From a virus: a stretch of DNA of 64,000 nt. The stretch's first letter is position 1. Each line of letters opens with the position of its first letter. A model generated the notes under the pieces. That model saw nothing but the letters and a program-made list of their open reading frames with translations. It ran no database searches and was not told where the DNA came from. The translations under genes were made by a program, and so were the position numbers. Positions 9,330 through 58,781 of the stretch are shown one piece after another. Location of the stretch: positions 1 through 64,000 of IMG/VR virus record IMGVR_UViG_3300042346_000188, one strand, 5' to 3'.

Positions 9330-12300
9330 GTGGCCATTAATGCTAATACACAAATTTATGATAAAACACTAGATCGAGCAGCAATGCTACGACTACATGA
9401 AAGAAGGGTAGTTGGTAAGGTTGATGTAATCATTGATGGTCATATCCTTCGTCTGGACAAATTAATAAAAGCTTTTGAAGGTATGAATCCTTTTAAAGTT
9501 GCATTAGATAAAGAGTTGCACAACACGTATTCACGAATCAACAACTCAGTAGAGAAGGATTTATTGTCTTTGACTACAGATCAACTTTCTTTTGCTTACC
9601 AAAAAGTAGAAGTAGCAATGGGACATATATGGCGTACTGAACGGCCTAAAGTTCGTGTTGCTGAAGAAATTGCGCTTGCTAATCCGCTCTATAAGAATCA
9701 AACAATGGAACAAGGTTGGCAGGGTATTTCTAAAAATGAGAAGGTTAGAATTGAAGCTGTAATTCGAAAAGGAATTGCAGATGGTAGTACTATTGATGAA
9801 ATAGCATTAGCAGTACGTACAGGAAATGTTCACAATATAACTAGAAACCAAGCAAAAGGCTTAGTCATTACTGCAGTTACTTCTGTAACAAATCAAGCTG
9901 ACCACGCAATTTATAAGGCTAATGCAAAGGCATTATTAGGCTGGGAATACGTTGCTGTACTTGATGCTCGTACTACACCTTTGTGTGCAGGCAGAGATGG
10001 ACATATCTATGAGATAGGAGATGTTGTACATTTGCCTCCAGCCCATTGGCATTGCCGTTCTACAACAACACCTGTATTTAAATCATGGGATGACATTTCT
10101 AAATTAGAAAGTGTTGCTCAAATACGTAAGCGAAACTTAGCAGGACTTACGGATAAACAAAAGGCTTTTTATGATGGTAATACTCCATTAAAAGAAAGCT
10201 ATAACGATTGGCTGCTAAGACAACCACAAGATGTTCAACTAAGACATTTAGGTGATTATAAAAAAGTAGGTATGTTTAATTCTCAACAACTTACTTTGGA
10301 CAAATTTACCAATGATGAAGGTAATACAATAGGTATCAAAGAATTACGTAAGATGACAGATTCTACTTATGTACTTCCAAATGATACCCAGAAGTTTGCC
10401 AATGCTAAGGCTAAATTAGATGCAATGCAATTGCCTATAATGACACCTGAAGATTTATTTGATAATAAAGAATTAGTAAAAACATTAAGAGATTATTATT
10501 TATTACAAGCTGGAGAATTAGATGGTACTTTATCACTCACAAACTATCGCGGTGCCCTCATACACACCAAGAAATCTACCAAGACACGAGTGCTCAACAA
10601 CCTTCCAACCGAAGACCAAACAATATTTAATCCAGTCACAGGCCGTTACGAAGATACCCGACTCTACCAGCCCAATGTACAAGTACTAAATAATAACCTT
10701 AGATTACTACGCGAAAGTCCAACATTAAAACAAGCAGATAAAGACTTTATCGAAAATTTTGTTGGTAGCCTTGATGAAAAGATGGGTGCAAATGAGAGAG
10801 CTGTAGTGGCAGATAATCTTCGTATTATCTTTACTAGGTTTAGAAACAATGGTGAGCAATGGAATAACTTTAAAGCTGTTGTTCAAGGCCAAATTAAGTT
10901 TGATGTAATGAACGTATCTGATTCATTGGAAACACAACTACGTGCTGATATTGATGTACTTAAAAAGCTTAAGCAAGACAATTACATTGACCCTATATTA
11001 GGGCCTACTCAGTTGCAAGATTTGCATGATAACTTTATCAGCAATATACGCGCTAAGAATAATTGGGAAGATTCTACTGCCCCTAAAATAGCTAGAGAAT
11101 TGCGCAATACCTTTGACTACAAAATACCGCTTAAGCTTAAGTTGTTGCCTAATGGTAAGCCACGTATTAGCGAAGAAGCATTAACACAATTTTATTTGAA
11201 ATTTGCCCATAGGCTGAGTCTTGCTGATATGCCTGACAGAGATCAGTTTGCTGTAGCACTTGGTAGAGATTTATACAATCTTGCCAACCTAAATGGTAAT
11301 AGACGTGAATGGTACAGCACAGGAATGGCGCTATTAGAAGCAAAGAATGTAAAGAAATTCTTCGAAGTAGAAACGTTTGGTGTACAAAAGCGAAGAATGA
11401 AAAGTAGATTGAGTAACAGTTTGTTTGGACCTTATTATGACACTCTGTCATATAACATACGTGTGACTGATCCTCGTGTACAAGAATATGCGCAGCTCAC
11501 AAGGAAAGTGGATGTCGGCCTACGTGTTGGCGTTACAACGGATAAGAACAAGTTAATATTCCGCGAGGGTTATAAGACTTATTTTATTGACAGAGGTCTC
11601 CTAGGCCTAGAGGACACACGGATACCTATTACATCTACAAATAGTTTTGGTGATTTTCCTGAGAAGTTTGTTGATAAGAATTTGGCAGATGCTTTAAACT
11701 GGGCATCTAAGTCTAAATACAAAATTGACGAAGACTTCTACGATTTCACTCAGAAATTATTGTACTTCGAAGATGATAGAGGTAACGCTAAAAAGTACAA
11801 CGAATTGAATGAATACAAACATTATATATCTTCAAGAGGAGATGCTTATGAGAGATTCAAATCAATGGAGTGGTTACGCACTAGAGGATATTCTTTTAGT
11901 AATCATGCTTTTGTTGACCATCGCGCTCGTATATATGATCGCGGACTCATTAGTCCTCAGTCAGGAGAATCCTTCAGACCATTTCTTAACACAGAACAAT
12001 CAAAAGTGTTGGGTGAGGCCGGATACAGAAACTTCAGAGACCAAATAGGTGCATTCATGGGCGGTCTTAATGATACTTTTGAAGGACGATATAATTCGTT
12101 ATCTTTCACTGGTAGACAAAAGATTGCTGATAAGCTATGGCCTGATATGGTTGACATTGGTAATAAAATGTTACGTGCCAAACCTGCTGATATTCGTGCT
12201 ATACTAGAGTCAGAAATGGTACAACTAGTAGATGGTGAAGAGCTGGGTAAGTTCTTTAGATTCGCTATGGAGTCAGCTAAGATAGATAATCATCTTAAAG

Positions 12301-13955
12301 CTGGCGGAGCCATGGAAGACTATAAGACAGCCTTAGCTTTAGAACAAGATGCTTCATCTTCTGGTGCTCAGATCATTGCATTGACAACCAAGAACAAACA
12401 GCTAGCAGAATTATCTAATGTTGTACCTACAAATCAAAAACGTAGGCTATATGATGAGATTGCTGCTGCCACTTATAATGATCCGCGTTTTAAAGTATTA
12501 AACGAGAAGTTAGGGTTAAATGAAAAAGATTTACGAAAAGCTGCGAAAGCTCAGAACATGGTTACGTTTTATGGTGCTGGTGAACGAACTGGCATCCTTA
12601 ATGTGGAAGGTAAACTATCAAAGGTCTTGGACAAGCAAGGTAACACGTTGGTCGTTAAAGCGTCTGATCGTGATAAGGTACTTAATGAGATTTCTGCAAG
12701 AGCAGCAAGATACGAACGTTTCGATCCTGAAACAGCTGAACAGCTCAAACAGCTCAGAGCAAATGTACGCGATATCTTTAATAAAGGCCAAGATCCTGGG
12801 GACGATATTATGGAAGCGCTCTACTTCCTCGATCCAGAGACTAGGCAGTTAGTTGAAAAGATGTCTCATCAGTACGATAGAGTTGTAACACCATCAGACT
12901 TTGCTGCTATTGCAAGACTAATGTCTGAACAGCTAAGTGAACAAGTGCCTATTCTAAAAGACTTTACTAAGTTCTTTGGAAGACTTGCTGAAGATTTCTT
13001 AGTTAATTCTAAACCTTCGCAAGCAGCACTTGACTGGAAATCTATTGGTATTACCACTGCCTTAAGACCTTATCAGAAAGGTTATGTACTTCCTGATCGT
13101 ATCAGTGAAATACTGGGTTTAAAGGCAGGAGAAGCAGTAACTGAAAAGTTCTTAAAAAGGTTTAATGGCTGGAAACCAGACGGTTCTTTAGCTGATATTA
13201 TCTATGGTGTAAAAGGCCCCGATGACAGACGTACTGGCTTTAAAGTACTTAAAATTGAACCTGTAGATAAGATTGAAATATCTAAGGGTATCGAAATCTT
13301 TTATGCTAACAAGCTTCCTAAGTCTTGGACAAATGTACCTTGGGTTAATTTTGATGGTAAAATCATTGAACAGAACTTTACCCAAACATTTGAAGAAAGA
13401 CTAGCTTATAAAGATAAGGAAGGTAATTGGGTAAACAATATCTTGCAAATACCTCAAAAGACAGAGGCTACATGGTGGGAACAAGTTGTAAATGCTGATG
13501 GCAAGATTAATGATATAGCTGATGCAGGAAAAGCACGTACTGCTTTTGCCGTTAATGGCAACCATTCAAATGACGCCACATTGGTTAAGAACTTTCACCT
13601 ATGGGGTAAAGAAAATGGTATTGCCACTAGTACTATTCATGACGCATTCTTTGCTAATGCAGCAGATATGTTAAATGCTCGTGATGGTATTCGTAAATTA
13701 TACGCAAAAACATTGGATGCTAATCCCGTTGTAGCTACACTAAATGAGATGAAAGCTCGTGGATTACCTAAAGAGCTTTACGATCAATACCTTCAAGAAG
13801 CCATAGACAAGGGATTAATACCTGTAGAGGGTGTTTCTATTGTTGGTGGTAAACGCTTGAAGAAATCTGATATCCTTACTAAAGAGGATATTTTATCAAC
13901 AATACCCGATCCTACTAAATTTGAAAATGATTGGGGTTTTTATGGAATTGGATAA
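9330..13955 (+). CDS. MuF/SPP1 gp7-like minor head protein fused to a T7-family single-subunit RNA polymerase (putative virion RNAP)
   Basis: N-terminal YVAVLDARTTPLC...PPAHWHCRS (MuF); C-terminal DHRARIY, DASSSGAQ (motif A), RKAAKAQNMVTFYG (motif B), NGNHSNDA and IHDAF (motif C). Confidence 0.9.
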   Translation: MAINANTQIYDKTLDRAAMLRLHERRVVGKVDVIIDGHILRLDKLIKAFEGMNPFKVALDKELHNTYSRINNSVEKDLLSLTTDQLSFAYQKVEVAMGHIWRTERPKVRVAEEIALANPLYKNQTMEQGWQGISKNEKVRIEAVIRKGIADGSTIDEIALAVRTGNVHNITRNQAKGLVITAVTSVTNQADHAIYKANAKALLGWEYVAVLDARTTPLCAGRDGHIYEIGDVVHLPPAHWHCRSTTTPVFKSWDDISKLESVAQIRKRNLAGLTDKQKAFYDGNTPLKESYNDWLLRQPQDVQLRHLGDYKKVGMFNSQQLTLDKFTNDEGNTIGIKELRKMTDSTYVLPNDTQKFANAKAKLDAMQLPIMTPEDLFDNKELVKTLRDYYLLQAGELDGTLSLTNYRGALIHTKKSTKTRVLNNLPTEDQTIFNPVTGRYEDTRLYQPNVQVLNNNLRLLRESPTLKQADKDFIENFVGSLDEKMGANERAVVADNLRIIFTRFRNNGEQWNNFKAVVQGQIKFDVMNVSDSLETQLRADIDVLKKLKQDNYIDPILGPTQLQDLHDNFISNIRAKNNWEDSTAPKIARELRNTFDYKIPLKLKLLPNGKPRISEEALTQFYLKFAHRLSLADMPDRDQFAVALGRDLYNLANLNGNRREWYSTGMALLEAKNVKKFFEVETFGVQKRRMKSRLSNSLFGPYYDTLSYNIRVTDPRVQEYAQLTRKVDVGLRVGVTTDKNKLIFREGYKTYFIDRGLLGLEDTRIPITSTNSFGDFPEKFVDKNLADALNWASKSKYKIDEDFYDFTQKLLYFEDDRGNAKKYNELNEYKHYISSRGDAYERFKSMEWLRTRGYSFSNHAFVDHRARIYDRGLISPQSGESFRPFLNTEQSKVLGEAGYRNFRDQIGAFMGGLNDTFEGRYNSLSFTGRQKIADKLWPDMVDIGNKMLRAKPADIRAILESEMVQLVDGEELGKFFRFAMESAKIDNHLKAGGAMEDYKTALALEQDASSSGAQIIALTTKNKQLAELSNVVPTNQKRRLYDEIAAATYNDPRFKVLNEKLGLNEKDLRKAAKAQNMVTFYGAGERTGILNVEGKLSKVLDKQGNTLVVKASDRDKVLNEISARAARYERFDPETAEQLKQLRANVRDIFNKGQDPGDDIMEALYFLDPETRQLVEKMSHQYDRVVTPSDFAAIARLMSEQLSEQVPILKDFTKFFGRLAEDFLVNSKPSQAALDWKSIGITTALRPYQKGYVLPDRISEILGLKAGEAVTEKFLKRFNGWKPDGSLADIIYGVKGPDDRRTGFKVLKIEPVDKIEISKGIEIFYANKLPKSWTNVPWVNFDGKIIEQNFTQTFEERLAYKDKEGNWVNNILQIPQKTEATWWEQVVNADGKINDIADAGKARTAFAVNGNHSNDATLVKNFHLWGKENGIATSTIHDAFFANAADMLNARDGIRKLYAKTLDANPVVATLNEMKARGLPKELYDQYLQEAIDKGLIPVEGVSIVGGKRLKKSDILTKEDILSTIPDPTKFENDWGFYGIG

Positions 13956-14178: not shown

Positions 14179-14197
14179 ACCCCGTTAAATTAACCCT
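14179..14197 (+). promoter_or_regulatory. Class A repeat ACCCCGTTAAATTAACCCT, copy 1 (putative phage RNAP promoter)
   Basis: Exact 19-mer, four intergenic copies; this one lies inside the inverted repeat GGAGGCAG/CTGCCTCC. Confidence 0.75.
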
Positions 14198-14289
14198 TCC
14201 CTGCCTCCCCCTATATTCATTATATATAGTTATTATCTCTTATTATAATATCTATTATACTAAGTAATATACTATATAATCATTATAGA

Positions 14290-14308
14290 ACCCCGTTAAA
14301 TTAACCCT
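14290..14308 (+). promoter_or_regulatory. Class A repeat, copy 2, upstream of scaffold/capsid operon
   Basis: Exact 19-mer 80 nt before the scaffold start. Confidence 0.75.
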
Positions 14309-17547: not shown

Positions 17548-18120
17548 ATGGCACACATTTCTAGCTTAACCGCTGCAATGTTCTCTGATTTATCAGTAAA
17601 CCCAACCGCAAGTTCAGACGCAGCATGGAACGCATTAGCTACAGAAGCAGACTATAATGGTAAATTTGCAGGTACTGGCGCTAATACATTAGTATCTATT
17701 TCGCATTTGAAAGAGTTTCCTGCGTTAGGTACTCCCGCAAATATCACTAAAGTTCCTGAATACGGTTCTAAAACTTCTAAACAAGTGCAAGGCCAAGCTG
17801 ATCTTCCAAACATGGAAATTACGCTTAACTATATCCCAAGCTTGTGGGCTGGTAACGAATTACGTAACGAAGCTGCTTCTAATGCAGCAACAGGTGTTAA
17901 GGTTGGCGATGGCAAACTTTACATTTTCCGTTTTGCATTATTAGGTACAGATCCTGTTGCAGGCTTAACTTCTGCCAACTTGGCTACTATTGAAAACTCT
18001 TGCTTTTACTTCTTAGGTAAAATGGAAGCATTGGAAGTAACTTCAAGTTTAACTGAAGCTATGACTGCTAAGCTAACAATTTCAGTACAATCTGAAATTA
18101 AAGGCGCATACACTAACTAA
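17548..18120 (+). CDS. Tail tube (major tail) protein, paralog 1
   Basis: EFPALGTPANITKVPEYG...QVQGQAD...EITLNYIP motif; synteny. Confidence 0.8.
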   Translation: MAHISSLTAAMFSDLSVNPTASSDAAWNALATEADYNGKFAGTGANTLVSISHLKEFPALGTPANITKVPEYGSKTSKQVQGQADLPNMEITLNYIPSLWAGNELRNEAASNAATGVKVGDGKLYIFRFALLGTDPVAGLTSANLATIENSCFYFLGKMEALEVTSSLTEAMTAKLTISVQSEIKGAYTN

Positions 18121-18129
18121 GGAGGCCTT

Positions 18130-18822
18130 ATGGCAACGGCAAAAGGTCACATTTCTAGCTTAACCGCAGTAATGTTCTCTGATTTATCAATCACTAACTA
18201 TCCAGTTACTAGTTCAGATTGGGATTCAGCATTCAGTACACCATCTACTGTTGAAGCAAAGCTTGGGCAACTATTTGATAATAAGTCAAAACTAGTTTTG
18301 ATTGATGATAGTATTGCGGGTGGTGTATCTTTCGCAGATTTGATTGATACTACTAACACTGTAGTGCCAGGGGCAGCTGCTGGCAATGCAGAGTTTATTC
18401 GTATTACTCACTTAAAAGAATTCCCTGCTCTAGGCACACCTGCTAATATCACTAAGGTTCCTGAATACGGCTCTAAAACTTCTAAGCAGGTACAAGGACA
18501 AGCCGATCTTCCGAACATGGAAGTCACCTTGAACTATATTCCTAGTTTGTGGGCAGATGCAATTGTACATGATGAAGATGGTGTAGCTCGTCAGCCTAAA
18601 GTTGGTGATGGCAAGACATATGTATTCCGTTTTACTTTGTTAGGTACAGAGCCTAGCGGTTACACAACTTCTGAGTTAGCTGCAAGTGCTGAGCATTCTT
18701 GCTTTTATTTCTTAGGTAAGATTGAAGCTCTAGAAGTAACTTCAAGCTTAACAGAGGCAATGACTGCTAAGCTCACTATCTCAGTACAATCAGAAATTAA
18801 AGGTGCTTATACAGCAGCTTAG
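18130..18822 (+). CDS. Tail tube protein, paralog 2
   Basis: Shares long identical blocks with 17548..18120 plus an N-proximal insertion. Confidence 0.8.
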   Translation: MATAKGHISSLTAVMFSDLSITNYPVTSSDWDSAFSTPSTVEAKLGQLFDNKSKLVLIDDSIAGGVSFADLIDTTNTVVPGAAAGNAEFIRITHLKEFPALGTPANITKVPEYGSKTSKQVQGQADLPNMEVTLNYIPSLWADAIVHDEDGVARQPKVGDGKTYVFRFTLLGTEPSGYTTSELAASAEHSCFYFLGKIEALEVTSSLTEAMTAKLTISVQSEIKGAYTAA

Positions 18823-18830
18823 TTTAATTG

Positions 18831-18858
18831 TGGAGGGTTTCGGCCCTCCATTTCTTTT
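18831..18858 (+). terminator. Rho-independent terminator
   Basis: TGGAGGG-TTTCGG-CCCTCCA then TTTCTTTT. Confidence 0.8.
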
Positions 18859-18868
18859 CGAGACAACA

Positions 18869-19084: not shown

Positions 19085-19085
19085 T

Positions 19086-19403: not shown

Positions 19404-19447
19404 GTGACGAAGAGCTTCCTATTTTTGAAATAGCGTATCAACTTAAA

Positions 19448-50700: not shown

Positions 50701-51396
50701 ATAAATAGCTCTGGAAGCTACACAACTACAGTTAGTAGCGGTACAGCCAAGCCTTTAAAAATAGATATTAATTCCTCTATTGAGAGCAACACAACACTAA
50801 CTTTTAATAATAGCGGTACCATTCAAGGCGAAACTCTTTCAACAGCAAGAGTATTTAATAAACCTGAAAATGCTTTTGATATTTATTGCGCTTGTAAGCT
50901 TGTAATAAACAATAATGGCACAATAAGAGGTAGAGGTGGCAGTGGTGGCAGAGGTGGTTCTTCAATTAATCGTGGCGATTATGATGGCGAAGCTGGCGGT
51001 CCAGGCGGAGATGCTATTTATGCTTCTACAAATTTAACTCTTAATAATTATGGGACGCTTGCTTGTGGCGGTGGAGGAGGCGGTGGAGGTGGAGGTAATG
51101 GTTCTGGTGCCAGTACTTGGAGTAGCTCTACATATGCCAGAAGCACTACATATCCTACTCCGTCAGGCTCTGATGTAGGTACTAATGGCACTTCAGGCAA
51201 GGCAAGCGGTGGCGGTGGTGGAGCAGGTGGTACTGGCGCAAACGGAGCTGCGGGCACTGGTGTGTACGGTACTTACTCTCGTCAAGGTGATAATAGCGGT
51301 ATATATGCGTCAGGCGGTGCTGGAGGTGCCAAGGGTTCTGCACTTACGGGTGGAGGTAGCGTAACACTTAACAACTACGGGACATATTACCCATGA
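47761..51396 (+). CDS. Glycine-rich adhesin-like protein with FN3 repeats
   Basis: Two NNGTI.G.GG polyglycine modules separated by FN3-like domains; directly after the chaperone-bearing fibre. Confidence 0.65.
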   Translation: MPYSISDVNVDLGRTTTATTSLNEPVVRDLLLADPYPAPVNLYPDLSPENNTPPVLSVNTITQNSCIFTWTGGETYGTYQLRGRWKDKDGYWVNIAAGNTLTKGAVFNFGYSGDLRNTMYGYYEVFIVIRFNGIDYLPSNTVNVQLLDWSFEDGFYPATPYGVGSTADANYPNHSVTYRYDIRWFRLALRLKGVADSELGGSAPATYTNFSMSIHRNVTIYDSNNYNGNVVMTVLAGNNNYLWEAPKLIIGIDVGSDHDFTFVYSGIANVDPSDYVLGHYETDTTYQPGDVVCMYSNLVMCIKTCTNIEPFNHASWSYYWDYPPTNPGRAIAFWNTHYARNSTFINNGTILGGGGGGGRGGETTITELYYNPSAFINQKYLKGDAVTHSGNIFVCVTDTVSAYFNGTFTWSTPVRSSHTTYWRFYALSTEKFSTGSDGLQGGPALYQGSGISGGVKLMNNGTIFGGGNGGGGGGGGTVPMSYAVVYGFNGEGTFSSTPVSPAGGDGGHGSFYNRAEVNPSVDFKYKGGMGGKGSINGLTAGENATGANHDYSGDGLGGGYIANNWTEGSFNVLPGGKPLPPVLSIAAVSQNSITLGIAKQDPIGGNTPTGYYIYDSANVQQGSTTNDTFTIAGLTSDTSYSYYVTAYNTLVSASSSTIIGKTALILPTFTFGVDNKTYNSFTVIISKVTSAIYYEIYFNGVLRTTINDSGNSTTVYATGPTMGISSTTYVTVKAYSGTNSSVLTPPQAWTTTYAAVPAVPTSFTYAETNNTNALLSWSGSGVSYKIAVKNQSNNAVTNYTSSIMNITATGLDYGTLYEISIVAVNEIGDSIAYVIPNVMLVDVYLPTLTLSSVTTKTFNVSFGGPMTGHTHTLMLQSMEYSGGWETEIIGAYASGSAFTPPNRSRGKYRLRIQVANSGGKVMATPYLDVQLSDWVISSSTTTNTPQNMSNGWYFNDAWIRNNTTALAASNPESTCLRSVTINSSGSYTTTVSSGTAKPLKIDINSSIESNTTLTFNNSGTIQGETLSTARVFNKPENAFDIYCACKLVINNNGTIRGRGGSGGRGGSSINRGDYDGEAGGPGGDAIYASTNLTLNNYGTLACGGGGGGGGGGNGSGASTWSSSTYARSTTYPTPSGSDVGTNGTSGKASGGGGGAGGTGANGAAGTGVYGTYSRQGDNSGIYASGGAGGAKGSALTGGGSVTLNNYGTYYP

Positions 51397-51845: not shown

Positions 51846-52511
51846 ATGGCCAAAAGAGTTAGGAAGGAACAGCCTACAGATGTTATTGATGCAGTCAAAC
51901 CAATAACACTCTTGACTAAAGCACAGAAACAGTATTTCAATTCAATGAAAACGAATACTATTACTTTTGGGATTGGCGTTGCGGGGACGGGAAAGTCTTA
52001 CGTTGCAATCTCCTATGCTGCACAATTGTTACAAGAGAAGAAGATAAACAAGATTATCTTAACAAGGCCAGCTGTTGAGGCTGGAGAATCGTTTGGATTT
52101 CTTCCTGGAGAGTTAGATGAAAAGTATGCGCCTTATATTGATCCTGTAAAAGATATACTTAATAAAAGATTAGGTACATCTTTCACTGATTACTTGTTTA
52201 AACGAAAGATTATTGAAGCGCGGCCACTAGCATTTATTAGGGGAAGTACTTTTGAAGAAGCTTTTGTAATACTAGATGAGGCTCAAAACTGTACACCTAC
52301 TCAGATGAAAATGTTTCTAACTAGAATTGGCGAAGATGCAAAAGTTGTTATAGATGGGGATATCCAACAAAAGGATATCAAAGGCACATCAGGATTGTCT
52401 GATGCAATTGTAAGATTGCAAGGGATGAACGATGTGGGTATTGTTACATTTGACATTGAAGATGTTGTCCGTAGCGGCATCTGTAAAGAAATTATTAGGA
52501 GGTATGCATGA
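51846..52511 (+). CDS. phoH: PhoH-like ATPase
   Basis: GVAGTGKS Walker A, LTRPAVEAGE, GFLPG, RGSTF, DEAQN and GDIQQ. Confidence 0.95.
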   Translation: MAKRVRKEQPTDVIDAVKPITLLTKAQKQYFNSMKTNTITFGIGVAGTGKSYVAISYAAQLLQEKKINKIILTRPAVEAGESFGFLPGELDEKYAPYIDPVKDILNKRLGTSFTDYLFKRKIIEARPLAFIRGSTFEEAFVILDEAQNCTPTQMKMFLTRIGEDAKVVIDGDIQQKDIKGTSGLSDAIVRLQGMNDVGIVTFDIEDVVRSGICKEIIRRYA

Positions 52512-52690
52512 AGTATATATGGGCAAGGCTTAAAGAGCCTTCAACATGGTTTGGACTGATTTCAGCTACATTAGCTGTATTAAGTTCGTTTAAATTTATT
52601 ACATTAACAGCAGAAGAAATGGATAGTCTGCTTGCGTTGTCAGTTGCTCTTTTGGGCAGTGGTAGCGTAGTATCCAAAGATCCACAATAG
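52508..52690 (+). CDS. Putative holin (two TM segments)
   Basis: RLKEPSTWFG followed by hydrophobic helices; 60 aa. Confidence 0.6.
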   Translation: MKYIWARLKEPSTWFGLISATLAVLSSFKFITLTAEEMDSLLALSVALLGSGSVVSKDPQ

Positions 52691-52696
52691 CGGTAC

Positions 52697-52724
52697 GCCT
52701 CGACACAATTGTCGGGGCTTTTTT
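52697..52724 (+). terminator. Rho-independent terminator ending the late region
   Basis: GCCTCGACA-CAAT-TGTCGGGGC then TTTTTT. Confidence 0.85.
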
Positions 52725-52930
52725 ACGAGAGTCATGGGGGCAATTTTGCGGGGCAAGACGGGGCATTTCTGCACGAATTTTGGTGGGCGGCAAATCTGGG
52801 CCTGTGTGGCGCGGGGCGGTGGGGGCATCACTGGTGGATCAGGGTGGCAGTTGCGTGCCGTGTAGGGCAGTTTCTGGTGCCAGAACGGGTACACGTGGGG
52901 CAGTTGCGTGCAGTTCTTCAGGTACACTCA
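52725..52930. repeat. GC-rich, G-skewed non-coding tract with GGGCA/GGCAGTT repeats
   Basis: Repeated GGGGCA and two copies of GGCAGTTGCGTGC in an otherwise AT-rich genome. Confidence 0.65.
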
Positions 52931-52949
52931 ACCCCGTTAAATTAACCCT
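52931..52949 (+). promoter_or_regulatory. Class A repeat, copy 3
   Basis: Exact ACCCCGTTAAATTAACCCT. Confidence 0.75.
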
Positions 52950-52984
52950 TGCGGCCTCCCCCTGTATTATCTCTCTTAGTAATA

Positions 52985-53017
52985 CGGAAATAATAGTATC
53001 TTATATGAAGTACAATA
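52985..53017 (+). promoter_or_regulatory. Class B repeat CGGRAA-N5-GTATCTTATATGAAGTACAATA, copy 1 (putative early promoter)
   Basis: Exact 22-mer at 52996..53017; CGG starts 11 nt upstream in all three copies. Confidence 0.75.
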
Positions 53018-53040
53018 ATAACCTTATATAGGATAACATT

Positions 53041-53871
53041 ATGTTTATTACAAGAAAAATGGTATTAAAAGATTTTGCAGTTAATCGTAAGAAAGCTACA
53101 AAGAAATATGGCAAGCATGAGTTGCCTCAAATTGACTATTCAAGTGATGCTCTGTCTTACAACATAAAAACTGTTTTGGCAACTTATCTTCAAGCCGGTA
53201 GTATGGCCTATGCACAGTTGAAACTCCACTCCGAAGCTGCAATTTCTTTGTGGGAACCTACTAAAAGGATATTTAAGATAGATCCTACAGTGTCTGCTGA
53301 ATTGTGTAATTCAGCTGTTAGCGCTAGGGTGCCTGTAGATATTATAAGACTTCCTGATTGGTCTATAAGAGTTGATTGCCCTGAGATGCAACTAATGGCC
53401 TGTAAGTTGCGAGTACATGCCAATGGTGATATAGAAGATATGTTAGTAATAGTCATTGATGAAGAAAAAGAGCAAGTTGCAAAGGCTCTACGCCTAAATG
53501 AACCCTGGTGCGCTGATGAAGACACTGAAGAGGCTAAAGCTTACATTGGAAAGGCACTTTCTCTTTTATTATATTTGAGCACAGTGCATAATAGCGTTCC
53601 AAGATCTGCTTATAAAAAGTATACGGCTCTTAGTAAGAAAAATCAAACCAAACCTTTTATCTATCCTGAAAAAGCTTCTATAGTAAAGATAGGAGAAGAG
53701 CTTGGAAAAATGCTTCAAACAGCTTATACAAAGCAAGCAGGCTACAGTATGAAAGCGCACATAAGAAGAGCGCATTGGCATAACTATTGGACAGGTCCGA
53801 AAGATAATAGGAAGCTAATATGTAAGTGGACAAACTCCACAGGTGTTAATATGAATTTAGCCGATGTATAA
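53041..53871 (+). CDS. Early hypothetical protein with C-terminal HxRRxHW motif
   Basis: HIRRAHWHNYWTG; first gene after the class B repeat. Confidence 0.65.
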   Translation: MFITRKMVLKDFAVNRKKATKKYGKHELPQIDYSSDALSYNIKTVLATYLQAGSMAYAQLKLHSEAAISLWEPTKRIFKIDPTVSAELCNSAVSARVPVDIIRLPDWSIRVDCPEMQLMACKLRVHANGDIEDMLVIVIDEEKEQVAKALRLNEPWCADEDTEEAKAYIGKALSLLLYLSTVHNSVPRSAYKKYTALSKKNQTKPFIYPEKASIVKIGEELGKMLQTAYTKQAGYSMKAHIRRAHWHNYWTGPKDNRKLICKWTNSTGVNMNLADV

Positions 53872-53873
53872 CG

Positions 53874-53906
53874 CGGGAAATACGGTATCTTATATGAAGT
53901 ACAATA
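53874..53906 (+). promoter_or_regulatory. Class B repeat, copy 2
   Basis: Exact 22-mer at 53885..53906. Confidence 0.75.
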
Positions 53907-53923
53907 CTAACTTGGAGATTAAA

Positions 53924-54133
53924 ATGAAATACGAAGTGTTTATATTTGAACGTAATGCCGACAGTTATCATGATAGAGCAAATTTATTAAAAGCTTATAG
54001 AAGTTTTGAAGAATATGAGGATAAGATGGTGTTTGTTGTTGATACCGAAACAGGTGCCTTTGAGGTTATCTGTAATAAAGAGCAACTAAGTCTAGCAGCT
54101 GCAAAATTATTGTATATGGGGGAATTAAGATGA
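53924..54133 (+). CDS. Early hypothetical protein (start revised)
   Basis: GGAG RBS before ATG 53924; the ORF-track start runs through the promoter repeat. Confidence 0.6.
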   Translation: MKYEVFIFERNADSYHDRANLLKAYRSFEEYEDKMVFVVDTETGAFEVICNKEQLSLAAAKLLYMGELR

Positions 54134-54429
54134 GCACAGTAATGTTTATGATTGACGCGGTTTTAGATATACGCGTTAGAACCCATTCAGTATTTGAATA
54201 TGTACTATTCGAAGCTGAGTGTTACGATGAGTGTATTACTCTCCTAGACAGCGCTGATGCACGTCTTAGAGTTGGTAATAATTACTCATATTCTTGGAAC
54301 CATACCCATTGGGATGGACAAAGATTAGAGTCATTTATTACACTTTTAGATTTACTTGATGATGATAAGTACAAATTAAACGTCCTTACAGAGGGCCATC
54401 TTTTTCAACAAGGGGTATTAGTATTATGA
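54130..54429 (+). CDS. Early hypothetical protein
   Basis: ATGA-coupled ORF. Confidence 0.6.
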   Translation: MSTVMFMIDAVLDIRVRTHSVFEYVLFEAECYDECITLLDSADARLRVGNNYSYSWNHTHWDGQRLESFITLLDLLDDDKYKLNVLTEGHLFQQGVLVL

Positions 54430-54584
54430 GTGAATGGTATAGCTTTATCGAAGCAATGTTACTGGTTGGTTTTTATTTTGTTTATGTAGCTTACAATGTA
54501 TTTGCAGAAGACTGCAAAGATAGACGTAAGTATTGCAAGGTACGTCGTTGGGCACGGCATGCTCTGCAAAAGGACTACAAATAA
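54426..54584 (+). CDS. Small membrane protein (52 aa)
   Basis: MSEWYSFIEAMLLVGFYFVYVAY... with basic tail; ATGA-coupled. Confidence 0.5.
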   Translation: MSEWYSFIEAMLLVGFYFVYVAYNVFAEDCKDRRKYCKVRRWARHALQKDYK

Positions 54585-54587
54585 ACG

Positions 54588-54620
54588 CGGAAAACGGGGT
54601 ATCTTATATGAAGTACAATA
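54588..54620 (+). promoter_or_regulatory. Class B repeat, copy 3
   Basis: Exact 22-mer at 54599..54620. Confidence 0.75.
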
Positions 54621-54658
54621 AGGTACCTCAATTCAATTAATCCAAGAGGAGAAAAATT

Positions 54659-54889
54659 ATGTTTAGTTTACTTGATTCACAATGTGCTTGTGTAGGTAGC
54701 AGTTATGATATATTCACGGAAGAATATTTTGAAGCACTATACCATATCGAGTATGGCGACGGAAAAGAGTCTCACGCCTTCTTGGATCATCATTTGAAGG
54801 GTAAACAAAAATCTGAACCAGCGTCTGAGTTCAAAGACGTAAAAACAATACAGATTCCATTTGAGGAGGAGTTTGAAGGCTATTGGTAA
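54659..54889 (+). CDS. Early hypothetical acidic protein
   Basis: GAGGAG RBS. Confidence 0.6.
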   Translation: MFSLLDSQCACVGSSYDIFTEEYFEALYHIEYGDGKESHAFLDHHLKGKQKSEPASEFKDVKTIQIPFEEEFEGYW

Positions 54890-54896
54890 CAGCCGC

Positions 54897-54926
54897 ATAG
54901 ACCTGAGTAGGTCTATAAAGTGCTTA
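54897..54926 (+). ncRNA. Candidate H-type pseudoknot, copy 1
   Basis: ATAGAC/GTCTAT stem 1 and TGAGTA/TGCTTA stem 2; same architecture at 59283. Confidence 0.45.
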
Positions 54927-54978
54927 TGTGTATAAGGATGTGTATCCTATACTGATGAGACTATAAAGTCGAAACAAC
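54927..54978 (+). ncRNA. Hammerhead ribozyme type III, copy 1
   Basis: GUA site, stem I, CUGAUGA, stem II GACU-AUAA-AGUC, GAAAC; stem III is short. Confidence 0.75.
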
Positions 54979-54996
54979 TCCAAGAGGAAATTTACA

Positions 54997-55281
54997 ATGA
55001 AAAACAAATTAGATAAACTAGCTTTAATTGGTGTCCTAAACACTTTCTGGGTGTTTGAACGCAACGGGATGGGCGGTGTACCCTCCTTTGATTTCACTAA
55101 TAAAAAAGCTGGAGTTAATGTCTGGCACATCGAGGGCGACAAAGTAGGCATAATGTTACTTGAAACAAAGGAGGTATTTGAAACTAACCTAGAATGGGAT
55201 GAGATTTCCGAATCCTATGGGCTTGGAGATTGGGATATTCCAAGATTAAATTCTCTAATTAACTTAACTGAAGGTGATTAA
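54997..55281 (+). CDS. Early hypothetical protein
   Basis: GAGGA RBS just downstream of hammerhead 1. Confidence 0.6.
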   Translation: MKNKLDKLALIGVLNTFWVFERNGMGGVPSFDFTNKKAGVNVWHIEGDKVGIMLLETKEVFETNLEWDEISESYGLGDWDIPRLNSLINLTEGD

Positions 55282-55282
55282 A

Positions 55283-55468
55283 ATGGAAGGTACAATTTTT
55301 GAAATTGGTGGTTATGAGTTTTACATAGCTTGGAATGAAAAGATGACAATCTACAAAGTATGGTATGATCGCGGCCATTACCTTGATAGACGCGCTCCAA
55401 GGTTTGAATGCACTTCTTATGAGGAATCTGTGGCATTCTGTAAACTCAAATACGCTTACTGTGGGTAA
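55283..55468 (+). CDS. Early hypothetical protein
   Basis: AGGTGA RBS; start 55283 or 55274. Confidence 0.5.
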   Translation: MEGTIFEIGGYEFYIAWNEKMTIYKVWYDRGHYLDRRAPRFECTSYEESVAFCKLKYAYCG

Positions 55469-55522
55469 GTGTCTCGGGATGTGTATCCCAACTGACGAGT
55501 CTAAAAAGACGAAACACACTTA
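55466..55522 (+). ncRNA. Hammerhead ribozyme type III, copy 2
   Basis: GUC site, stem I GGGAU-GUGU-AUCCC, CUGACGA, stem II GUCU-AAAA-AGAC, GAAAC, stem III. Confidence 0.88.
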
Positions 55523-55533
55523 GGAGTTATATT

Positions 55534-55710
55534 ATGTTTACTATTGAAATCAATGATGTAGAAATTGAAATGAAAGAAACAGGAATGGGTATTTGGGAAG
55601 GTTCTAAAGAATTTTATCAAGTAGTATTTGATGAATTTCTTCAAGAATTGTTTGTAGCAGCAATGCTAGGCAATCGTATTGTTAAGTGTGAGAGTCAATT
55701 CTTATGCTAA
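55534..55710 (+). CDS. Early hypothetical protein (58 aa, not in ORF track)
   Basis: AGGAG RBS directly after hammerhead 2; MFTIEINDVE...SQFLC*. Confidence 0.6.
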   Translation: MFTIEINDVEIEMKETGMGIWEGSKEFYQVVFDEFLQELFVAAMLGNRIVKCESQFLC

Positions 55711-55828
55711 AACATACAGTTTATGGTATTGGAAATACCGTAATGTCTTCAATAGATATGAGTGCAGATGTAATTACAATTGGGCTAGCATTAGCTCTAC
55801 TTTTAATGTTTACAAAATAGGTGATATT

Positions 55829-56248
55829 ATGTTTCCTTTAATTGCTTTAGGTGTTACAGCTTTAGGTGGATTTGGTTATACTAAAACAAATTCTTACAAA
55901 AGAAAAGTAGAACGTCATGCAAGACGTGCTGCTGAGAAAGCAACAAAAATTGCGAAAACCCAACTAGAGGCTGAAGCCTTGCATGACCTGATGGTAGAAG
56001 ATATGGCTAAGTCAGACTCTGCTAATCTTGAAGGTCGATTCTGTGTTAACGAGAAAGATAAGGAGTTAAAATATGTACGCTCAATACGAACATTAAAGCT
56101 GGATAATTTACAAATACTTTCGTATGAGAAAGATGATACGGAAGTAGCAGTTGTTGATACAAAGGGTTCGGTCGTCCCCTTCTATTTGAAAAAGAACGAT
56201 GCGCTTCTACTACAAGAAATTTTAGACAAACGGTTTCCAACACCGTAA
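55829..56248 (+). CDS. Membrane-anchored hypothetical protein (start revised)
   Basis: AGGTGA RBS; N-terminal MFPLIALGVTALGGFG. Confidence 0.55.
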   Translation: MFPLIALGVTALGGFGYTKTNSYKRKVERHARRAAEKATKIAKTQLEAEALHDLMVEDMAKSDSANLEGRFCVNEKDKELKYVRSIRTLKLDNLQILSYEKDDTEVAVVDTKGSVVPFYLKKNDALLLQEILDKRFPTP

Positions 56249-56483
56249 GTTGGAGAGTATTGTAGTCATATCTAAGGATTACAATGGCATTTCTACAATA
56301 CTCGGTTACAATTCTGTTAATGTTTGCTTTATTAGGCATCTCGCTTGTTAGTTTTACTGTAGGTACATGTATTCACCTACACAGAACAGGAGTAAGAAAA
56401 TGCCGTTAATTTATTTAGCAGTTGTTGTATTAGTTGCAAAAGTTATGGACTCCGTTATTAACGAAGACAAGTAACAAAAACAC

Positions 56484-56531
56484 ACCCCTTTCAGATTCGA
56501 TTCCTTAACAGGTTTCGGGTTTGAGAGGGGT
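56484..56531 (+). other. Long imperfect hairpin upstream of the RNAP gene (terminator or processing site)
   Basis: CCCCTTTCAGATTCGA pairs with TCGGGTTTGAGAGGGG using G-U pairs; pyrimidine tract follows. Confidence 0.55.
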
Positions 56532-56552
56532 TCCTCCTTTATTTTTTCCATT

Positions 56553-58781
56553 TTGGTACTTATGCGAAATAAATTATTACGTTCTTTAAAGTCTAGAATT
56601 GTATCTGAGATTGCTCCTCAATCTCCATTACGATTCTTAAAGAAGTTGAATATCGAAGATCATCTTGATGAGATAATTGCCAACGCTTATTTGTATACTA
56701 GGCCTAAGAAAGGCTCTGATAAGCAGATTATAATGTCAGAGGTAATTAGTATTCTTGGCCATAACATGCGAAAAGGTGAAAAGAAAGACTCTGCTACTGC
56801 AGCAAGATGCGGAGCATTCATTCTGTATTCTTTTGACAGCTTAGGTCTAACAGAAATTGTAATGACTAATGCAGCCAATGGGCACGGTACATATATTGTT
56901 AATGTAATTGATGAAAAGAGTATGCAAGAGTTGTGGGAAACTGTTGGTAGGCAAGGAGGTAAGGGAAAACTGCCCTCACTAGTACCATATGAAGATTGGA
57001 AAGGGTTTAAACATTCTACAGGCTTGTCTTTAGTTAAGACACAGTCTAGAGAGGTTGCAGCTACACTAACACCAGCTACTCATCCTATTGTATTTGAAGC
57101 AGTAAATAAGAGTCAAAGAGTTGGCTGGATTATAAACCAAGAAGTATACGCAATTGCTAAGTGGGCGTTGAGTAATAAAACAGAAGCATTCTCAGATATT
57201 TGGGAACAAAACAATCCACAGGCAAGAACAACAAAGCTGCGAGAAACCAAAGCAATTTTAAGTATTGCAGATAAGTTTACTGATACAACTTTCTATCATC
57301 TGTACTACCTTGATTTTAGAGGTCGTAAGTACCCTACAACAGCATATCTGCATGAACAATCTTCAGATATAGCTAAAGGCTTACTGCTTAGAAAAGACAA
57401 GAAAGTTATTGGACAAGAGGGTTTCTTTTGGCTATGTGTATCTATTGCATCTAATTGGGCAGGCAGCTCAGGCAGAGAAGATGGTGCAAAGACTGACAAA
57501 ATACCACTTAGAGATAGATACCATTGGGTTCTAGACAATGAAGAGATTTTAACAGCTTATGCAATGTCGCCTAAGTTGCATCAAGGTTGGATGGATGCTG
57601 ATAAGCCTTGGCAATTCCTTGCAGCTTGTGTAGAGCTTAAGAATGCATTAAGTATGGGTTCAATGTACTTACAGTATGAATCACATATAGAATGCTTTAT
57701 TGACGGTTCTACTAATGGCTCTCAACATTTAAGTGCGTTAACTAGAGATGAAGTTACTGCCCCTTATGTTAATTTAGTACCGCTAGATATGCCTGGTGAT
57801 TTATATGCATACGTAGCTGCTCATGTGTGGATGAAGATTGATTCAGTTCTTAGCAGAATGCCACCTGCATTAATACTAGAATGTGAAGAATTCATTGATG
57901 GATTAATATCGCTGAAGAAGAAAATTGTAGCTGCAGAGCCTAAATCTGATTTGAGAGCAGAATTAGTAATGCAAATTAGACAGTACAAAAAAGATTGGGA
58001 ATCTGTTGGCAATAAAGCTGCACCTGTATTCTGGGGTAGAATTAAAGACTCTAAGCAAAGACGTAAAATTGTAAAGAGAAATGTAATGACACTACCTTAT
58101 GGGGGCTCTAGCTATGGTCTATCTGAACAACAAATAGATGATTCAAAGAAACATGGCATAGAGTTGTTAATGAATATGGAGCATAAATGGGCAGCTTGGA
58201 TGGGCAGATTGGTATATGAAGATGCTAAAGACTCGCTAGAAAGACCTATGATGTTGTTGTCTGTATTTGAAAAAGCTGGTGCAGCTGCAGAGAAAAGAGG
58301 TCAATTCTTAGAGTGGGTTGTGCCTGTAACAAACTTTCCTGTAGTACAAAACTATACAGAGGGTAAGACTAAGAGAATACATATTCAGTGGGGGCCTCGA
58401 ATTGGTATTAGAAGCGATACCACAGGATACTTTGGGAATGATCTGCAATTGCATGTATGTTTCATTGAGGATCAAGTTCCCTCAAAAGGAAAGCAGTCTC
58501 AAGGAGCAGCACCTAATGTAATCCATTCTTTGGATGCAGCACATCTAGCAATGACAACAGTTAGATGTGATTTTCCTATCACTACAATACATGATTCATA
58601 TGGATGCCTATTAGCAGACATGCCTAAGCTTTATCGTATTGTGCGTGAGACATTTGTTGAGTTGTACCGAGATAATCCTTTGTACCCTATCATAGATAAG
58701 ATTGATGGTGATCTTACTTATGTAGATATGGGTGATTTGGATGTTAATTTAATTCTAGAAAGTGAATATGCTTTCGCATAG
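56553..58781 (+). CDS. T7-family single-subunit DNA-directed RNA polymerase (stand-alone; start may be ATG 56562)
   Basis: DFRGRKY, PWQFLA, DGSTNGSQH (A), RKIVKRNVMTLPYG (B), PNVIHSLDA and IHDSY (C). Confidence 0.96.
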   Translation: MVLMRNKLLRSLKSRIVSEIAPQSPLRFLKKLNIEDHLDEIIANAYLYTRPKKGSDKQIIMSEVISILGHNMRKGEKKDSATAARCGAFILYSFDSLGLTEIVMTNAANGHGTYIVNVIDEKSMQELWETVGRQGGKGKLPSLVPYEDWKGFKHSTGLSLVKTQSREVAATLTPATHPIVFEAVNKSQRVGWIINQEVYAIAKWALSNKTEAFSDIWEQNNPQARTTKLRETKAILSIADKFTDTTFYHLYYLDFRGRKYPTTAYLHEQSSDIAKGLLLRKDKKVIGQEGFFWLCVSIASNWAGSSGREDGAKTDKIPLRDRYHWVLDNEEILTAYAMSPKLHQGWMDADKPWQFLAACVELKNALSMGSMYLQYESHIECFIDGSTNGSQHLSALTRDEVTAPYVNLVPLDMPGDLYAYVAAHVWMKIDSVLSRMPPALILECEEFIDGLISLKKKIVAAEPKSDLRAELVMQIRQYKKDWESVGNKAAPVFWGRIKDSKQRRKIVKRNVMTLPYGGSSYGLSEQQIDDSKKHGIELLMNMEHKWAAWMGRLVYEDAKDSLERPMMLLSVFEKAGAAAEKRGQFLEWVVPVTNFPVVQNYTEGKTKRIHIQWGPRIGIRSDTTGYFGNDLQLHVCFIEDQVPSKGKQSQGAAPNVIHSLDAAHLAMTTVRCDFPITTIHDSYGCLLADMPKLYRIVRETFVELYRDNPLYPIIDKIDGDLTYVDMGDLDVNLILESEYAFA

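Follow-up and report, generated by a model that had tools for sequence, protein, structure and literature searches.

How does a phage that encodes two single-subunit RNA polymerases (RNAPs) divide its transcription between them? The question arises from an 81,115-bp (81-kb) viral genome of freshwater source. The window, meaning the whole stretch of DNA analysed, comprises 64,000 nt of that record. The genome is strictly unidirectional with all genes oriented one way, and its 4352-aa tape measure protein indicates a long-tailed particle. One RNAP is fused to a head protein and the other, RNAP2, stands alone. The best explanation, to which we give a probability of about 0.6, is a two-step relay of these phage-own polymerases.

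The first-pass annotation had proposed both the MuF-RNAP fusion and the stand-alone 742-aa RNAP, and Pfam and PHROGs concur on the two genes as placed in Table 1. The fusion gene lies between the portal and scaffold genes, the usual place of a minor head protein. Its MuF domain scores 52 bits against the PF04233 cut-off of 29.6, and residues 58–369 match PHROG 241 (head morphogenesis, E 5e-56). With the domain above the Pfam cut-off and the portal gene adjoining, it qualifies as a MuF/SPP1 gp7 minor head protein. MuF is kept in all distant fusion members, down to 21–26% identity, and at 90% identity the fused protein falls into at least 396 clusters. It is routinely annotated just as 'head morphogenesis protein', and the RefSeq label on the Naomviridae fusion is merely 'head morphogenesis'.

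A survey, in the passages that deal with MuF, counts it among the portal-associated head proteins and presumes that the cargo domains fused to it enter the host (PMC5512222). The MuF fusion partner points to a capsid location for the polymerase.

The C-terminal 1100 aa of the fusion combine the catalytic motifs of a single-subunit RNAP (PF00940) with the right-hand fold and its N-terminal domain. The RNA_pol match to PF00940 scores 45 bits, where the cut-off is 22, and the comparison with T7 RNAP gives an hhalign E of 1.7e-4. The motifs are DHRAR (R867), D1007, K1073/Y1081/G1082, H1412 and H1437-D1438, with these catalytic residues unchanged throughout an alignment of family members 21–53% identical. 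An AlphaFold2 model of this part, of only moderate confidence (pLDDT 69.7), matches, along its length, T7 RNAP 1cez (Foldseek E 1.2e-15) and also mitochondrial RNAPs.

RNAP2 resembles T7 RNAP at a phmmer E of 1.2e-46, and its true start is probably ATG 56562, not TTG 56553. It retains R258, D384, K508/Y516/G517, H658 and H680-D681, and its C-terminus, ...ESEYAFA, keeps the T7-type YAFA, the aromatic-Ala-Phe-Ala foot of single-subunit RNAPs (PF00940). A terminator-like hairpin lies directly 5′ of its gene (56524–56540) and counts against the relay proposed below. Since the catalytic residues are intact in both polymerases and invariant across the fused family, both enzymes are apparently active, and the inactive RNAP that the first-pass annotation had allowed for finds no sign in their sequences.

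The two enzymes had been held too different for a recent duplication, and this view is upheld. Their differing motifs, DASSSGAQ in the fusion and DGSTNGSQH in RNAP2, are real and contain D1007 and D384, respectively. The sequences align only in short patches of 22–25% identity around motifs A and C. Phylogenetically, each RNAP forms its own clade with 100% support and the branching orders of the two clades match. RNAP2 clusters with the T7-like enzymes (99% support), N4 RNAPII falls outside that group and the N4 mini-vRNAP makes a separate long branch. Moreover, both RNAPs are present in every near-complete relative checked (G001–G003, G006–G010, DSS3_VP1 and DSS3_PM1). These sequence comparisons support the two RNAPs as ancient, co-inherited partners. 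The fused RNAP evolves slower than RNAP2, with tree paths of 0.31 versus 0.67 from G000 to G006 and 0.53 versus 0.83 from G000 to G002.

Table 1. Features of the window that bear on the transcription programme.
Feature	Coordinates	Strand	Remarks
Portal protein gene	7723..9318	+	PHROG 145 portal, E 9.8e-55; Pfam DUF4055; immediately 5′ of fusion gene
MuF-RNAP fusion, 1541 aa, candidate virion RNA polymerase	9330..13955	+	Pfam MuF and RNA_pol
MuF (SPP1 gp7-like) head-morphogenesis domain	9750..10067	+	residues 141–246; PF04233 (Phage_Mu_F)
Full-length single-subunit RNAP portion, including N-terminal-domain equivalent	10650..13955	+	residues ~441–1541
Class A site, first of tandem pair	14179..14197	+	followed by C-rich box CTCCCCCTATATT; ahead of scaffold/capsid genes
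Class A site, second of tandem pair	14290..14308	+	80 nt 5′ of scaffold gene
Scaffold gene	start 14388		scaffold and major head protein called by PHROGs
Intrinsic-terminator-like hairpin and T-run	52697..52728	+	9-pair stem with 6 G-C pairs, then TTTTTT
Class A site and C-rich box	52931..52949	+	late/early junction, 65 nt 5′ of first class B
Class B site 1	52980..53022	+	core 52996–53016; ahead of first early gene (53041)
Class B site 2	53869..53911	+	core 53885–53905; CGCGGGAAA just before
Class B site 3	54583..54625	+	core 54599–54619; CGCGGAAAA just before
Small early genes	53041..56248	+	no recognisable function
RNAP2, stand-alone canonical T7-like RNA polymerase, 742 aa	56553..58781	+	PF00940 E 1.8e-66
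Seven small ORFs, RNAP2 to next class A	58791..60664	+	ORF map
Class A site ahead of replication module	60665..60683	+	begins at base after stop codon

The two exact intergenic repeat families reported earlier are also real. Class A, ACCCCGTTAAATTAACCCT, has four exact copies in the window where shuffles of it give 0.02, and class B, GTATCTTATATGAAGTACAAT, has three where shuffles give 0.00. The copies of each keep to one strand and to intergenic DNA, and relatives have both classes at corresponding positions.

Class A occurs in seven exact copies in the whole record, 7/7 on the + strand, which is the coding strand, and all ahead of gene modules. It heads the packaging and capsid/tail modules and the replication module, which runs from a nucleotide kinase and DNA polymerase A onward, and is absent from the interval that runs from the first class B site to RNAP2. 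The tandem copies flank an AT-rich stretch. At the late/early junction, the order of class A with its C-rich box and then class B recurs in relatives L015–L018 and L021, and a class A site lies 5′ of the first class B at the early-region head in every genome examined. The motif drifts in G002 and is replaced in DSS3_VP1 and G010. About 15 copies are found in DSS3_VP1, in a T7-like form of ...CGTTAAA followed by GAGGGGGA.

Class B is confined to the interval between the late terminator and RNAP2, with no further exact copy in the remainder of the genome. It is made up of CGCGGAAA, 5–7 nt, GTATCTTATATG and then a purine, and its copies lie 40–60 nt 5′ of a start codon. A relative with 52% G+C carries the 12-nt core and the CGCGGAAA box unchanged, and a close variant, GCATCTATAATG, stands at the early-region head of DSS3_VP1, a phage of an alphaproteobacterium. 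A conserved hairpin is absent from class B; a weak stem, GTAtCTT/AAGTAC, is possible in the window, and the 3′ arm of this stem shows no conservation in G002, G003, G006 and G008.

The strong hairpin predicted as a terminator closes the long late operon. Beyond it, six of the small early genes were scanned without any Pfam family at E up to 0.01, and a 276-aa early protein has one PHROG match, of the unknown function class. The early location of RNAP2 is as first described, but it does not come last in the early region, in that seven small ORFs follow before the next class A. Pfam gave nothing for the three of them scanned, and the seven probably still belong to the early unit. The early region also contains two hammerhead-like elements, so RNA processing may belong to the programme.

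In the relay that we propose, the fusion would be made late, docked in the capsid via its MuF (SPP1 gp7-type) domain and released from the capsid together with the DNA. In the new host, the fused enzyme would initiate at the 2–3 class B sites after the late terminator and transcribe RNAP2 along with the small genes of the early region. As a T7-group enzyme of the ordinary kind, RNAP2 would then initiate at the class A sites heading the later modules. The fusion gene itself lies within a class A-headed module, and the cycle would thereby close. The relay may also help pull the genome into the cell, because every gene points one way. No role of the host RNAP is apparent. That the repeats are promoters and that the fusion is packaged and ejected is what we infer.

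The gene order is that of an N4-type relay, in which the gene of the candidate virion RNAP lies among the late genes, a small number of early sites occupy one end and the other RNAP is encoded downstream of them, and this order is kept in 8 genomes. The layout is shared by G001, G002, G003, G006, G008, G010 and DSS3_VP1. The first-pass annotation had assigned class B to the virion enzyme and class A to RNAP2; the arrangement behind this stands, with class B only 5′ of RNAP2 and class A heading the replication and capsid modules, and the assignment itself is probable. This pairing is drawn from the positions, the logic of timing and a weak rate correlation, which is based on a handful of genomes and appears to link the slow-changing class B with the slower fused RNAP and the class A drift with RNAP2. 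The RNA data are metatranscriptome contigs, which are uninformative on 5′ ends.

The usual programme for phages with a T7-like RNAP would be different: the host RNAP reads the early genes from class B or unrecognised host promoters, RNAP2 reads class A and the MuF polymerase has another job, such as DNA pull-in, replication priming at the tandem class A/AT-rich elements or late-only action. It has a parallel in the chasevirus phiEcoM-GJ1, annotated with a host σ70 promoter 5′ of its RNAP gene. The class A and C-box elements contain TTAACC, 16–18 nt and a TATTAT-like box and score 9/12 as σ70 sites, one of which overlaps the junction element. The class B core holds a perfect TATAAT in DSS3_VP1 and G010, so reading by the host is possible in these two.

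In the window, however, the class B core (TTATAT or TATATG) is without the essential A and T of the σ70 −10 box and without a −35 box, and a σ70 scan called 0/3 of the sites. The core is nevertheless identical over 37–52% G+C in this lineage. The same core at 52% G+C, the variant in DSS3_VP1 and the missing σ70 features make class B an unlikely host promoter. Nor are σ70-like sites enriched in the early region (31 versus 28.3 ± 5.2 in 52400–61000). Moreover, a catalytic centre kept invariant for so long on a capsid protein requires a polymerase function at or before entry. We regard the T7-style programme as unlikely.

A second alternative, which we rate as quite unlikely, exchanges or shares the sites: the injected fused RNAP starts at the junction class A, perhaps at all class A, and RNAP2 or both enzymes use class B. 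The sequence itself ties no enzyme to either motif, and in all the genomes examined the late/early junction has a class A site before its first class B. The injected enzyme could equally start at class A upstream of class B. However, RNAP2 acting on class B alone would merely re-express the early genes, a purposeless task for a canonical T7-group enzyme. The number and distribution of class A (7 here and ~15 in DSS3_VP1) are typical of T7-group promoters, as is its T7-like form in DSS3_VP1, and it diverges by lineage as those promoters do, in step with the faster RNAP2.

That class B is no promoter, but an early-regulator operator or an RNA-level signal for processing or translation control with the early genes read from the upstream class A, would suit its placement ahead of start codons and the hammerhead-like elements, yet is very unlikely, as its secondary structure is not conserved with the pairing downstream half lost in relatives, its TATA(T/A)T end with a purine resembles the initiation region of single-subunit RNAP promoters, and the G006 and G008 copies directly follow ORF ends at varying distances from the next gene.

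The relay of a capsid enzyme and an early enzyme may extend further. With odds slightly short of even, a large and widespread long-tailed phage group including the Naomviridae transcribes its whole genome without the host RNAP, by means of two T7-fold enzymes of ancient divergence, the capsid MuF enzyme acting on the long, family-wide class B and the early enzyme on a lineage-specific class A. On this reading, MuF would be a general vehicle delivering a working transcription machine.

We found no paper describing a relay from a packaged fused RNAP to a free RNAP. N4 is a known case of a virion RNAP handing over to a second phage RNAP with single-subunit enzymes, and the virion-to-second-RNAP relays of jumbo and crAss-like phages use unrelated enzyme types. 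If true, the present design would be an independent invention of the N4 logic, combining a pair of T7-fold enzymes with another delivery module in ordinary-sized long-tailed phages. A cultured pair exists in DSS3_VP1 on Ruegeria pomeroyi, which makes the model directly testable. If confirmed, it would offer two new orthogonal polymerase-promoter pairs for biotechnology. Speculatively, the relay might explain how the dU-DNA phages of the group express genes from a template that the host RNAP may read poorly.

Among known systems, T7 and the Autographiviridae and the Chaseviridae (phiEcoM-GJ1) share with this phage the unidirectional genome, the early RNAP gene and ~20-nt phage promoters, candidate ones here, before the middle and late modules. 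The C-terminal YAFA of the T7 group is found again in RNAP2. The class A copy 5′ of the putative early promoters takes the place of T7 phiOL, and the tandem class A sites around an AT-rich stretch are arranged like those of the T7 origin. With a single RNAP, the phages of these families express their early genes from host σ70 promoters, whereas this phage has an extra capsid-linked RNAP and a non-σ70 early motif.

Comparable designs are those of phiKZ, AR9 and PBS2, with virion and non-virion RNAPs, of crAss-like gp66 and of the tape-measure-fused RNAP of P23-45. Among them are a virion RNAP succeeded by a second phage enzyme, independently of the host RNAP, and a polymerase joined to a virion structural protein. 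All these enzymes belong to multisubunit or two-barrel types, which have no kinship with the T7/Pol A fold that this phage employs twice.

The Naomviridae (roseophages DSS3_VP1 and DSS3_PM1; PMC8323127) have homologues of both RNAPs at 30–33% identity and a related class B motif at the early-region head. Their gene order is also alike, from portal, MuF-RNAP, scaffold, capsid, tape measure, early genes and RNAP to nucleotide kinase, DNA polymerase, exonuclease, primase/helicase and RNR. The kinship is very distant, class A is unlike except for the common CGTTAAA, and their source is marine whereas ours is freshwater. No dCMP deaminase homologue was found here at the matching position, so dU-DNA is not indicated. 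The Naomviridae paper does not mention RNA polymerases (PMC8323127).

The MuF-fused effector cargo or polyvalent proteins (Iyer et al. 2017, PMC5512222), as described in the MuF passages, likewise join MuF to an enzymatic domain, with presumed co-delivery with DNA and a gene among the late virion genes. The fused domains named in those passages are RNases, 2H phosphoesterase, RelA/SpoT, PRTase and zeta-toxin-like kinase, and RNA polymerase is not among them.

Closest in logic is coliphage N4 (Schitoviridae), whose virion RNAP gp50 is followed by RNAPII gp15/gp16 and then the host RNAP (PMC4496689). As proposed here, both have a virion-carried single-subunit RNAP, a set of about three early promoters located at one end of the genome and an early-encoded second single-subunit RNAP that takes over, and in both the virion enzyme is strongly diverged from T7. 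The N4 virion enzyme is a 3500-aa three-part protein, whereas the fusion has 1541 aa with a MuF head domain; the N4 early promoters form a hairpin (5–7-bp stem, 3-nt loop), whereas class B has no conserved one; and the particle here is by its tape measure a long-tailed one. Late and middle modules here share the same class A signal, so no late phase by the host RNAP is apparent.

Two direct equivalences were rejected. RNAP2 is not an N4 RNAPII, being one 742-aa chain that groups with T7-like enzymes, whereas N4 RNAPII is split into gp15 and gp16. Nor is the fused enzyme homologous to the N4 vRNAP, as the family profile against N4 residues 998–2103 gave an hhalign E of 0.17 and a probability of 0.4%. 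Because of the latter, the earlier phrase 'N4-like logic built from different parts' is a fair description of this phage.

Transcription of the window phage probably (roughly 0.6) proceeds as a relay between two phage-encoded RNAPs, in which the MuF-RNAP fusion is packaged and ejected, reads the class B repeats for the early genes and RNAP2, and leaves class A to RNAP2. The fusion would be made late from class A transcripts, dock at the portal via MuF and exit with the DNA. Its polymerase would initiate at class B to express the early genes with RNAP2, which would then serve every class A site. We infer here the promoter role of the repeats, the enzyme–motif pairing, the packaging and the ejection.

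RNAP2, the stand-alone 742-aa enzyme, matches PF00940 at E 1.8e-66 and T7 RNAP at E 1.2e-46 (phmmer). It has R258 as the T/DxxGR arginine, D384 in motif A, K508/Y516 in motif B, H680-D681 in motif C, and H658. Its C-terminus reads ESEYAFA versus ESDFAFA in T7, and its N-terminal region is ~170 residues shorter. By these matches RNAP2 is an ordinary T7-group enzyme. No Shine-Dalgarno sequence lies 5′ of either candidate start codon.

In the 1541-aa fusion, Pfam and PHROG place the MuF/SPP1-gp7 head domain at the N-terminus and the polymerase in the C-terminal ~1100 residues (about 441–1541), with motifs DHRAR (R867), DASSSGAQ (D1007), RKAAKAQNMVTFYG (K1073, Y1081, G1082), NHSND (H1412) and IHDAF (H1437-D1438). 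The polymerase part is very divergent. Against T7 RNAP it reaches only E 0.006 by phmmer and 1.7e-4 by the family profile, and that profile has no similarity to the N4 mini-vRNAP (E 0.17). Over its whole length, an AlphaFold2 model (moderate quality, pLDDT 69.7) finds the T7 and mitochondrial RNAPs as structural matches at E ~1e-15. Alignment between the two polymerases is limited to the regions around motifs A and C, at 22–25% identity, bearing out the first-pass annotation of two divergent enzymes.

At 90% identity the fused architecture spans at least 396 protein clusters, almost all ~1540 aa long with both Pfam domains. Clustering at 50% leaves 163 representatives; the polymerase lies in the C-terminal half of all full-length ones, and MuF is retained in six of six distant members tested. 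An alignment of fused members that share 21–53% identity shows no change in the catalytic R, D, K, Y, G and D, which argues for selection on polymerase activity. A free RNAP and a fusion are both found in every near-complete relative searched, namely G001–G003, G006–G010 (five of nine long relatives) and two cultured roseophages, DSS3_VP1 (host Ruegeria pomeroyi DSS-3) and DSS3_PM1.

In a maximum likelihood tree (727 columns, quick search, SH-aLRT support only), the fused enzymes all fall in one clade and the RNAP2s in another (support 100 each), and the RNAP2 clade joins the T7-like enzymes (99). The N4 and Chaseviridae branches are very long and their placement is unreliable. Branching order is the same in both clades, so the pair is older than the split of the window lineage from Naomviridae. 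The phylogeny thus agrees with the earlier argument against a recent duplication. Path lengths are shorter for the fused enzyme (G000, the whole record, to G002: 0.53 versus 0.83 for RNAP2). Both polymerase genes attract insertions in relatives (table).

Two exact intergenic repeat families, as first annotated, are present in the record (81,115 bp, estimated complete, the window being its first 64 kb). Class A has seven copies, all intergenic, and class B has three, found nowhere else in the record. Class A indeed precedes the replication and capsid genes. Relatives carry both classes at corresponding positions, with 5–7 copies of the class A core CCCGTTAAATTAACCC in G001, G003, G006 and G008 and a form with 1–2 changes in G002. 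The class B core GTATCTTATATG has 1–3 copies, always between the late/early junction and RNAP2, in G001, G002, G003, G006 and G008, usually preceded at a fixed distance by (C/T)GCGGAAA; G002, with this core, is 52% G+C.

In the distant, Naomviridae-like genomes a signal clearly related to class B stands at the start of the early region: GAGAAA, 6–7 nt, GCATCTATAAT and then a purine. Their dispersed class A-like signal is quite different, ATAGGGTGCGTTAAAGAGG in ~15 copies in DSS3_VP1 and AAAATACTGCCGCCTAATGA in G010. Since the one is kept and the other replaced, class B is a stable, family-wide signal and class A a lineage-specific one. Two motif patterns gave no + strand class A or B match in the first 50 kb of EBPR siphovirus 1 (a partial record); the class B pattern did not fit the GTATCTTATATG form, and the negative is uninformative.

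Several points favour pairing the fused RNAP with class B. By its position, class B needs a reader at a time when RNAP2 has yet to be made. It is non-host in character and conserved in genomes that differ widely in composition. Class A is T7-like in number and spread. Also, the slowly changing motif, class B, matches the slowly changing enzyme, the fusion, in a rate correlation over few genomes.

The rival that survives best, itself unlikely, is a T7-style start by the host RNAP with another job for the fused polymerase. The TATAAT class B core in DSS3_VP1 and G010 leaves room for a sigma-70 reading in those genomes. In the window lineage class B is unlikely to be a sigma-70 promoter: its hexamers TTATAT and TATATG are without the essential A or T, and no −35 box accompanies them. 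A sigma-70 consensus scan called none at class B and found the early region not enriched (31 versus 28.3 ± 5.2).

A swapped or shared pairing, which we judge improbable, stays in play through the class A copy that lies at the junction, upstream of class B. Least probable is that class B is an operator or RNA signal. Both classes end A/T-rich before a purine-rich start, most clearly in DSS3_VP1 and G010; going by known T7-group promoters, this would resemble the general form of single-subunit RNAP promoters. Class B is not an N4-type hairpin either, because relatives do not keep the 3′ arm of the stem that the window sequence could form.

Class A and the T3 promoter have AATTAACCCT in common. 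As a T3-type promoter class A was rejected; the would-be −7 to +1 positions are not conserved among the copies, so the likeness is probably coincidence or at most partial analogy.

A conserved C-rich box (CT.CCCCCT, then A/T-rich such as TATATT) follows three class A copies, and a second promoter-like site (class A or B) lies ~65–110 nt past it over an extremely AT-rich spacer. This subclass occurs in relatives too, and the box overlaps a 9-of-12 sigma-70-like match. These pairs recall the T7 replication origin with its tandem promoters and AT-rich stretch.

Features of the record and its relatives
Feature	Genome	Position	Strand	Remark
MuF-RNAP fusion	window	9330-13955	+
Class A	window	14179, 14290	+	ahead of scaffold and capsid genes
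Class A	window	52931	+	late/early junction
Class A	window	60665	+	ahead of replication genes
Class A	G000	74111, 77635, 77729	+	outside window; last two ahead of terminase module
Class A with C-rich box, tandem	window	14179-14308, 52931-53016
Class A with C-rich box, tandem	G000	77635-77747		outside window
Class B	window	52996, 53885, 54599
Class B-related	DSS3_VP1	35809, 36256
Class B-related	G010	25263, 26188
Glycine-rich coding repeats	window	2674-5973, 32000-32950, 48800-51260
Tape measure gene	window	20077-33135
Strong terminator	window	52697-52728		then ~200 bp G-rich non-coding DNA
G-rich DNA	window	52735-52927		~190 bp, non-coding, repeated GGGGCA/GGCA words; between late terminator and junction class A
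Small early genes	window	53041-56248		function not recognised
Hammerhead-like, type III	window	54925-54980, 55466-55520		between early genes
Terminator-like hairpin and T-run	window	56524-56550		ends 2 nt 5′ of annotated RNAP2 start
RNAP2	window	56553-58781	+	then seven further small ORFs
Fusion with insertion	G001	17996-21508 (L077/L078)		in-frame, ~224 aa, just 3′ of motif B
Fusion split	EBPR siphovirus 1	25771-31144 (L011)		gp47-gp49; by HNH endonuclease gene
RNAP2 split	G008, G009	(L177-L180)

All sizeable ORFs lie on the + strand. By PHROG and Pfam scans, read from the junction near 52.7 kb, the small ORFs after RNAP2 are followed by a replication module (nucleotide kinase, DNA polymerase A, exonuclease, primase/helicase, RNR, ligase and a polynucleotide-kinase-like protein), small genes and the large terminase. 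Wrapping to the record start come decoration-like and Gly-rich proteins, portal and the fusion, then scaffold, major head protein, tape measure protein and large tail proteins up to the terminator. The early proteins scanned (six ahead of RNAP2, three after it) match no Pfam family, so neither a sigma factor nor a known host-RNAP inhibitor is recognised. For the 165-aa protein at 60713, dCMP deaminase was rejected, as it has no similarity to the DSS3_VP1 enzyme.

The phage is long-tailed, since it encodes a tape measure protein. This protein, of 4352 aa, has an internal lytic transglycosylase-like segment and implies an unusually long tail; the 3118-aa and 1211-aa proteins beside it have no PHROG match at E 1e-8. 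The raw repeat list is dominated by long glycine-rich coding repeats of the GGTGGTGG type in several structural genes, which have nothing to do with the promoter-like families. The G-rich stretch may mark a packaging site, an end or an origin. Rfam gives no match in the window at gathering thresholds, and both hammerhead-like elements are full-length RF00008 matches that score 27 and 35 bits, short of the gathering cut-off of 48.5 (E 0.009 and 5.6e-5). UniRef lists one truncated fusion homologue under Flavobacterium sp., only a hint to the host.

Parts of 52001-61500 occur in ten freshwater metatranscriptome runs from three studies, and three runs of one sample contain 0.80–0.86 of the sampled words; these are contigs only, in which starts, strand and levels are unreadable and DNA carry-over is possible. 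Contigs break or join chimerically at class A sites (one begins at 60687, one ends at 60682), and some join flanks of different copies (52949; 60663-60687). The joins could be strain mosaics, recombination at repeats or assembly artefacts. Both the breaks and the joins are confounded by repeats and strain variants, and we base nothing on these or on depth steps. In one freshwater sample, contigs of two runs reach the sequencing adapter at 52693, 3 bases past the stop codon of the last late ORF and just 5′ of the terminator.

The idea of MuF carrying effectors for injection is established. Where the survey PMC5512222 mentions MuF, the cargo domains it names as fused include no RNA polymerase. 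RefSeq names the fusion homologue of DSS3_VP1, gp108, 'head morphogenesis'. Our full-text literature search, pairing MuF or minor head protein with RNAP (single-subunit, T7-like or virion), returned no description of this design. The closest real relatives are Naomviridae, whose description (PMC8323127) makes no mention of RNA polymerases.

The genome layout and RNAP2 resemble those of T7. However, T7 and Chaseviridae possess a single RNAP, and the host reads their early promoters, whereas the window phage has two RNAPs. It falls outside the N4 families on homology, protein architecture, promoter form and RNAPII subunit structure. Yet the proposed order, a virion single-subunit RNAP and then a second phage RNAP, is that of N4, so the first description of an N4-like logic built from different parts remains apt.
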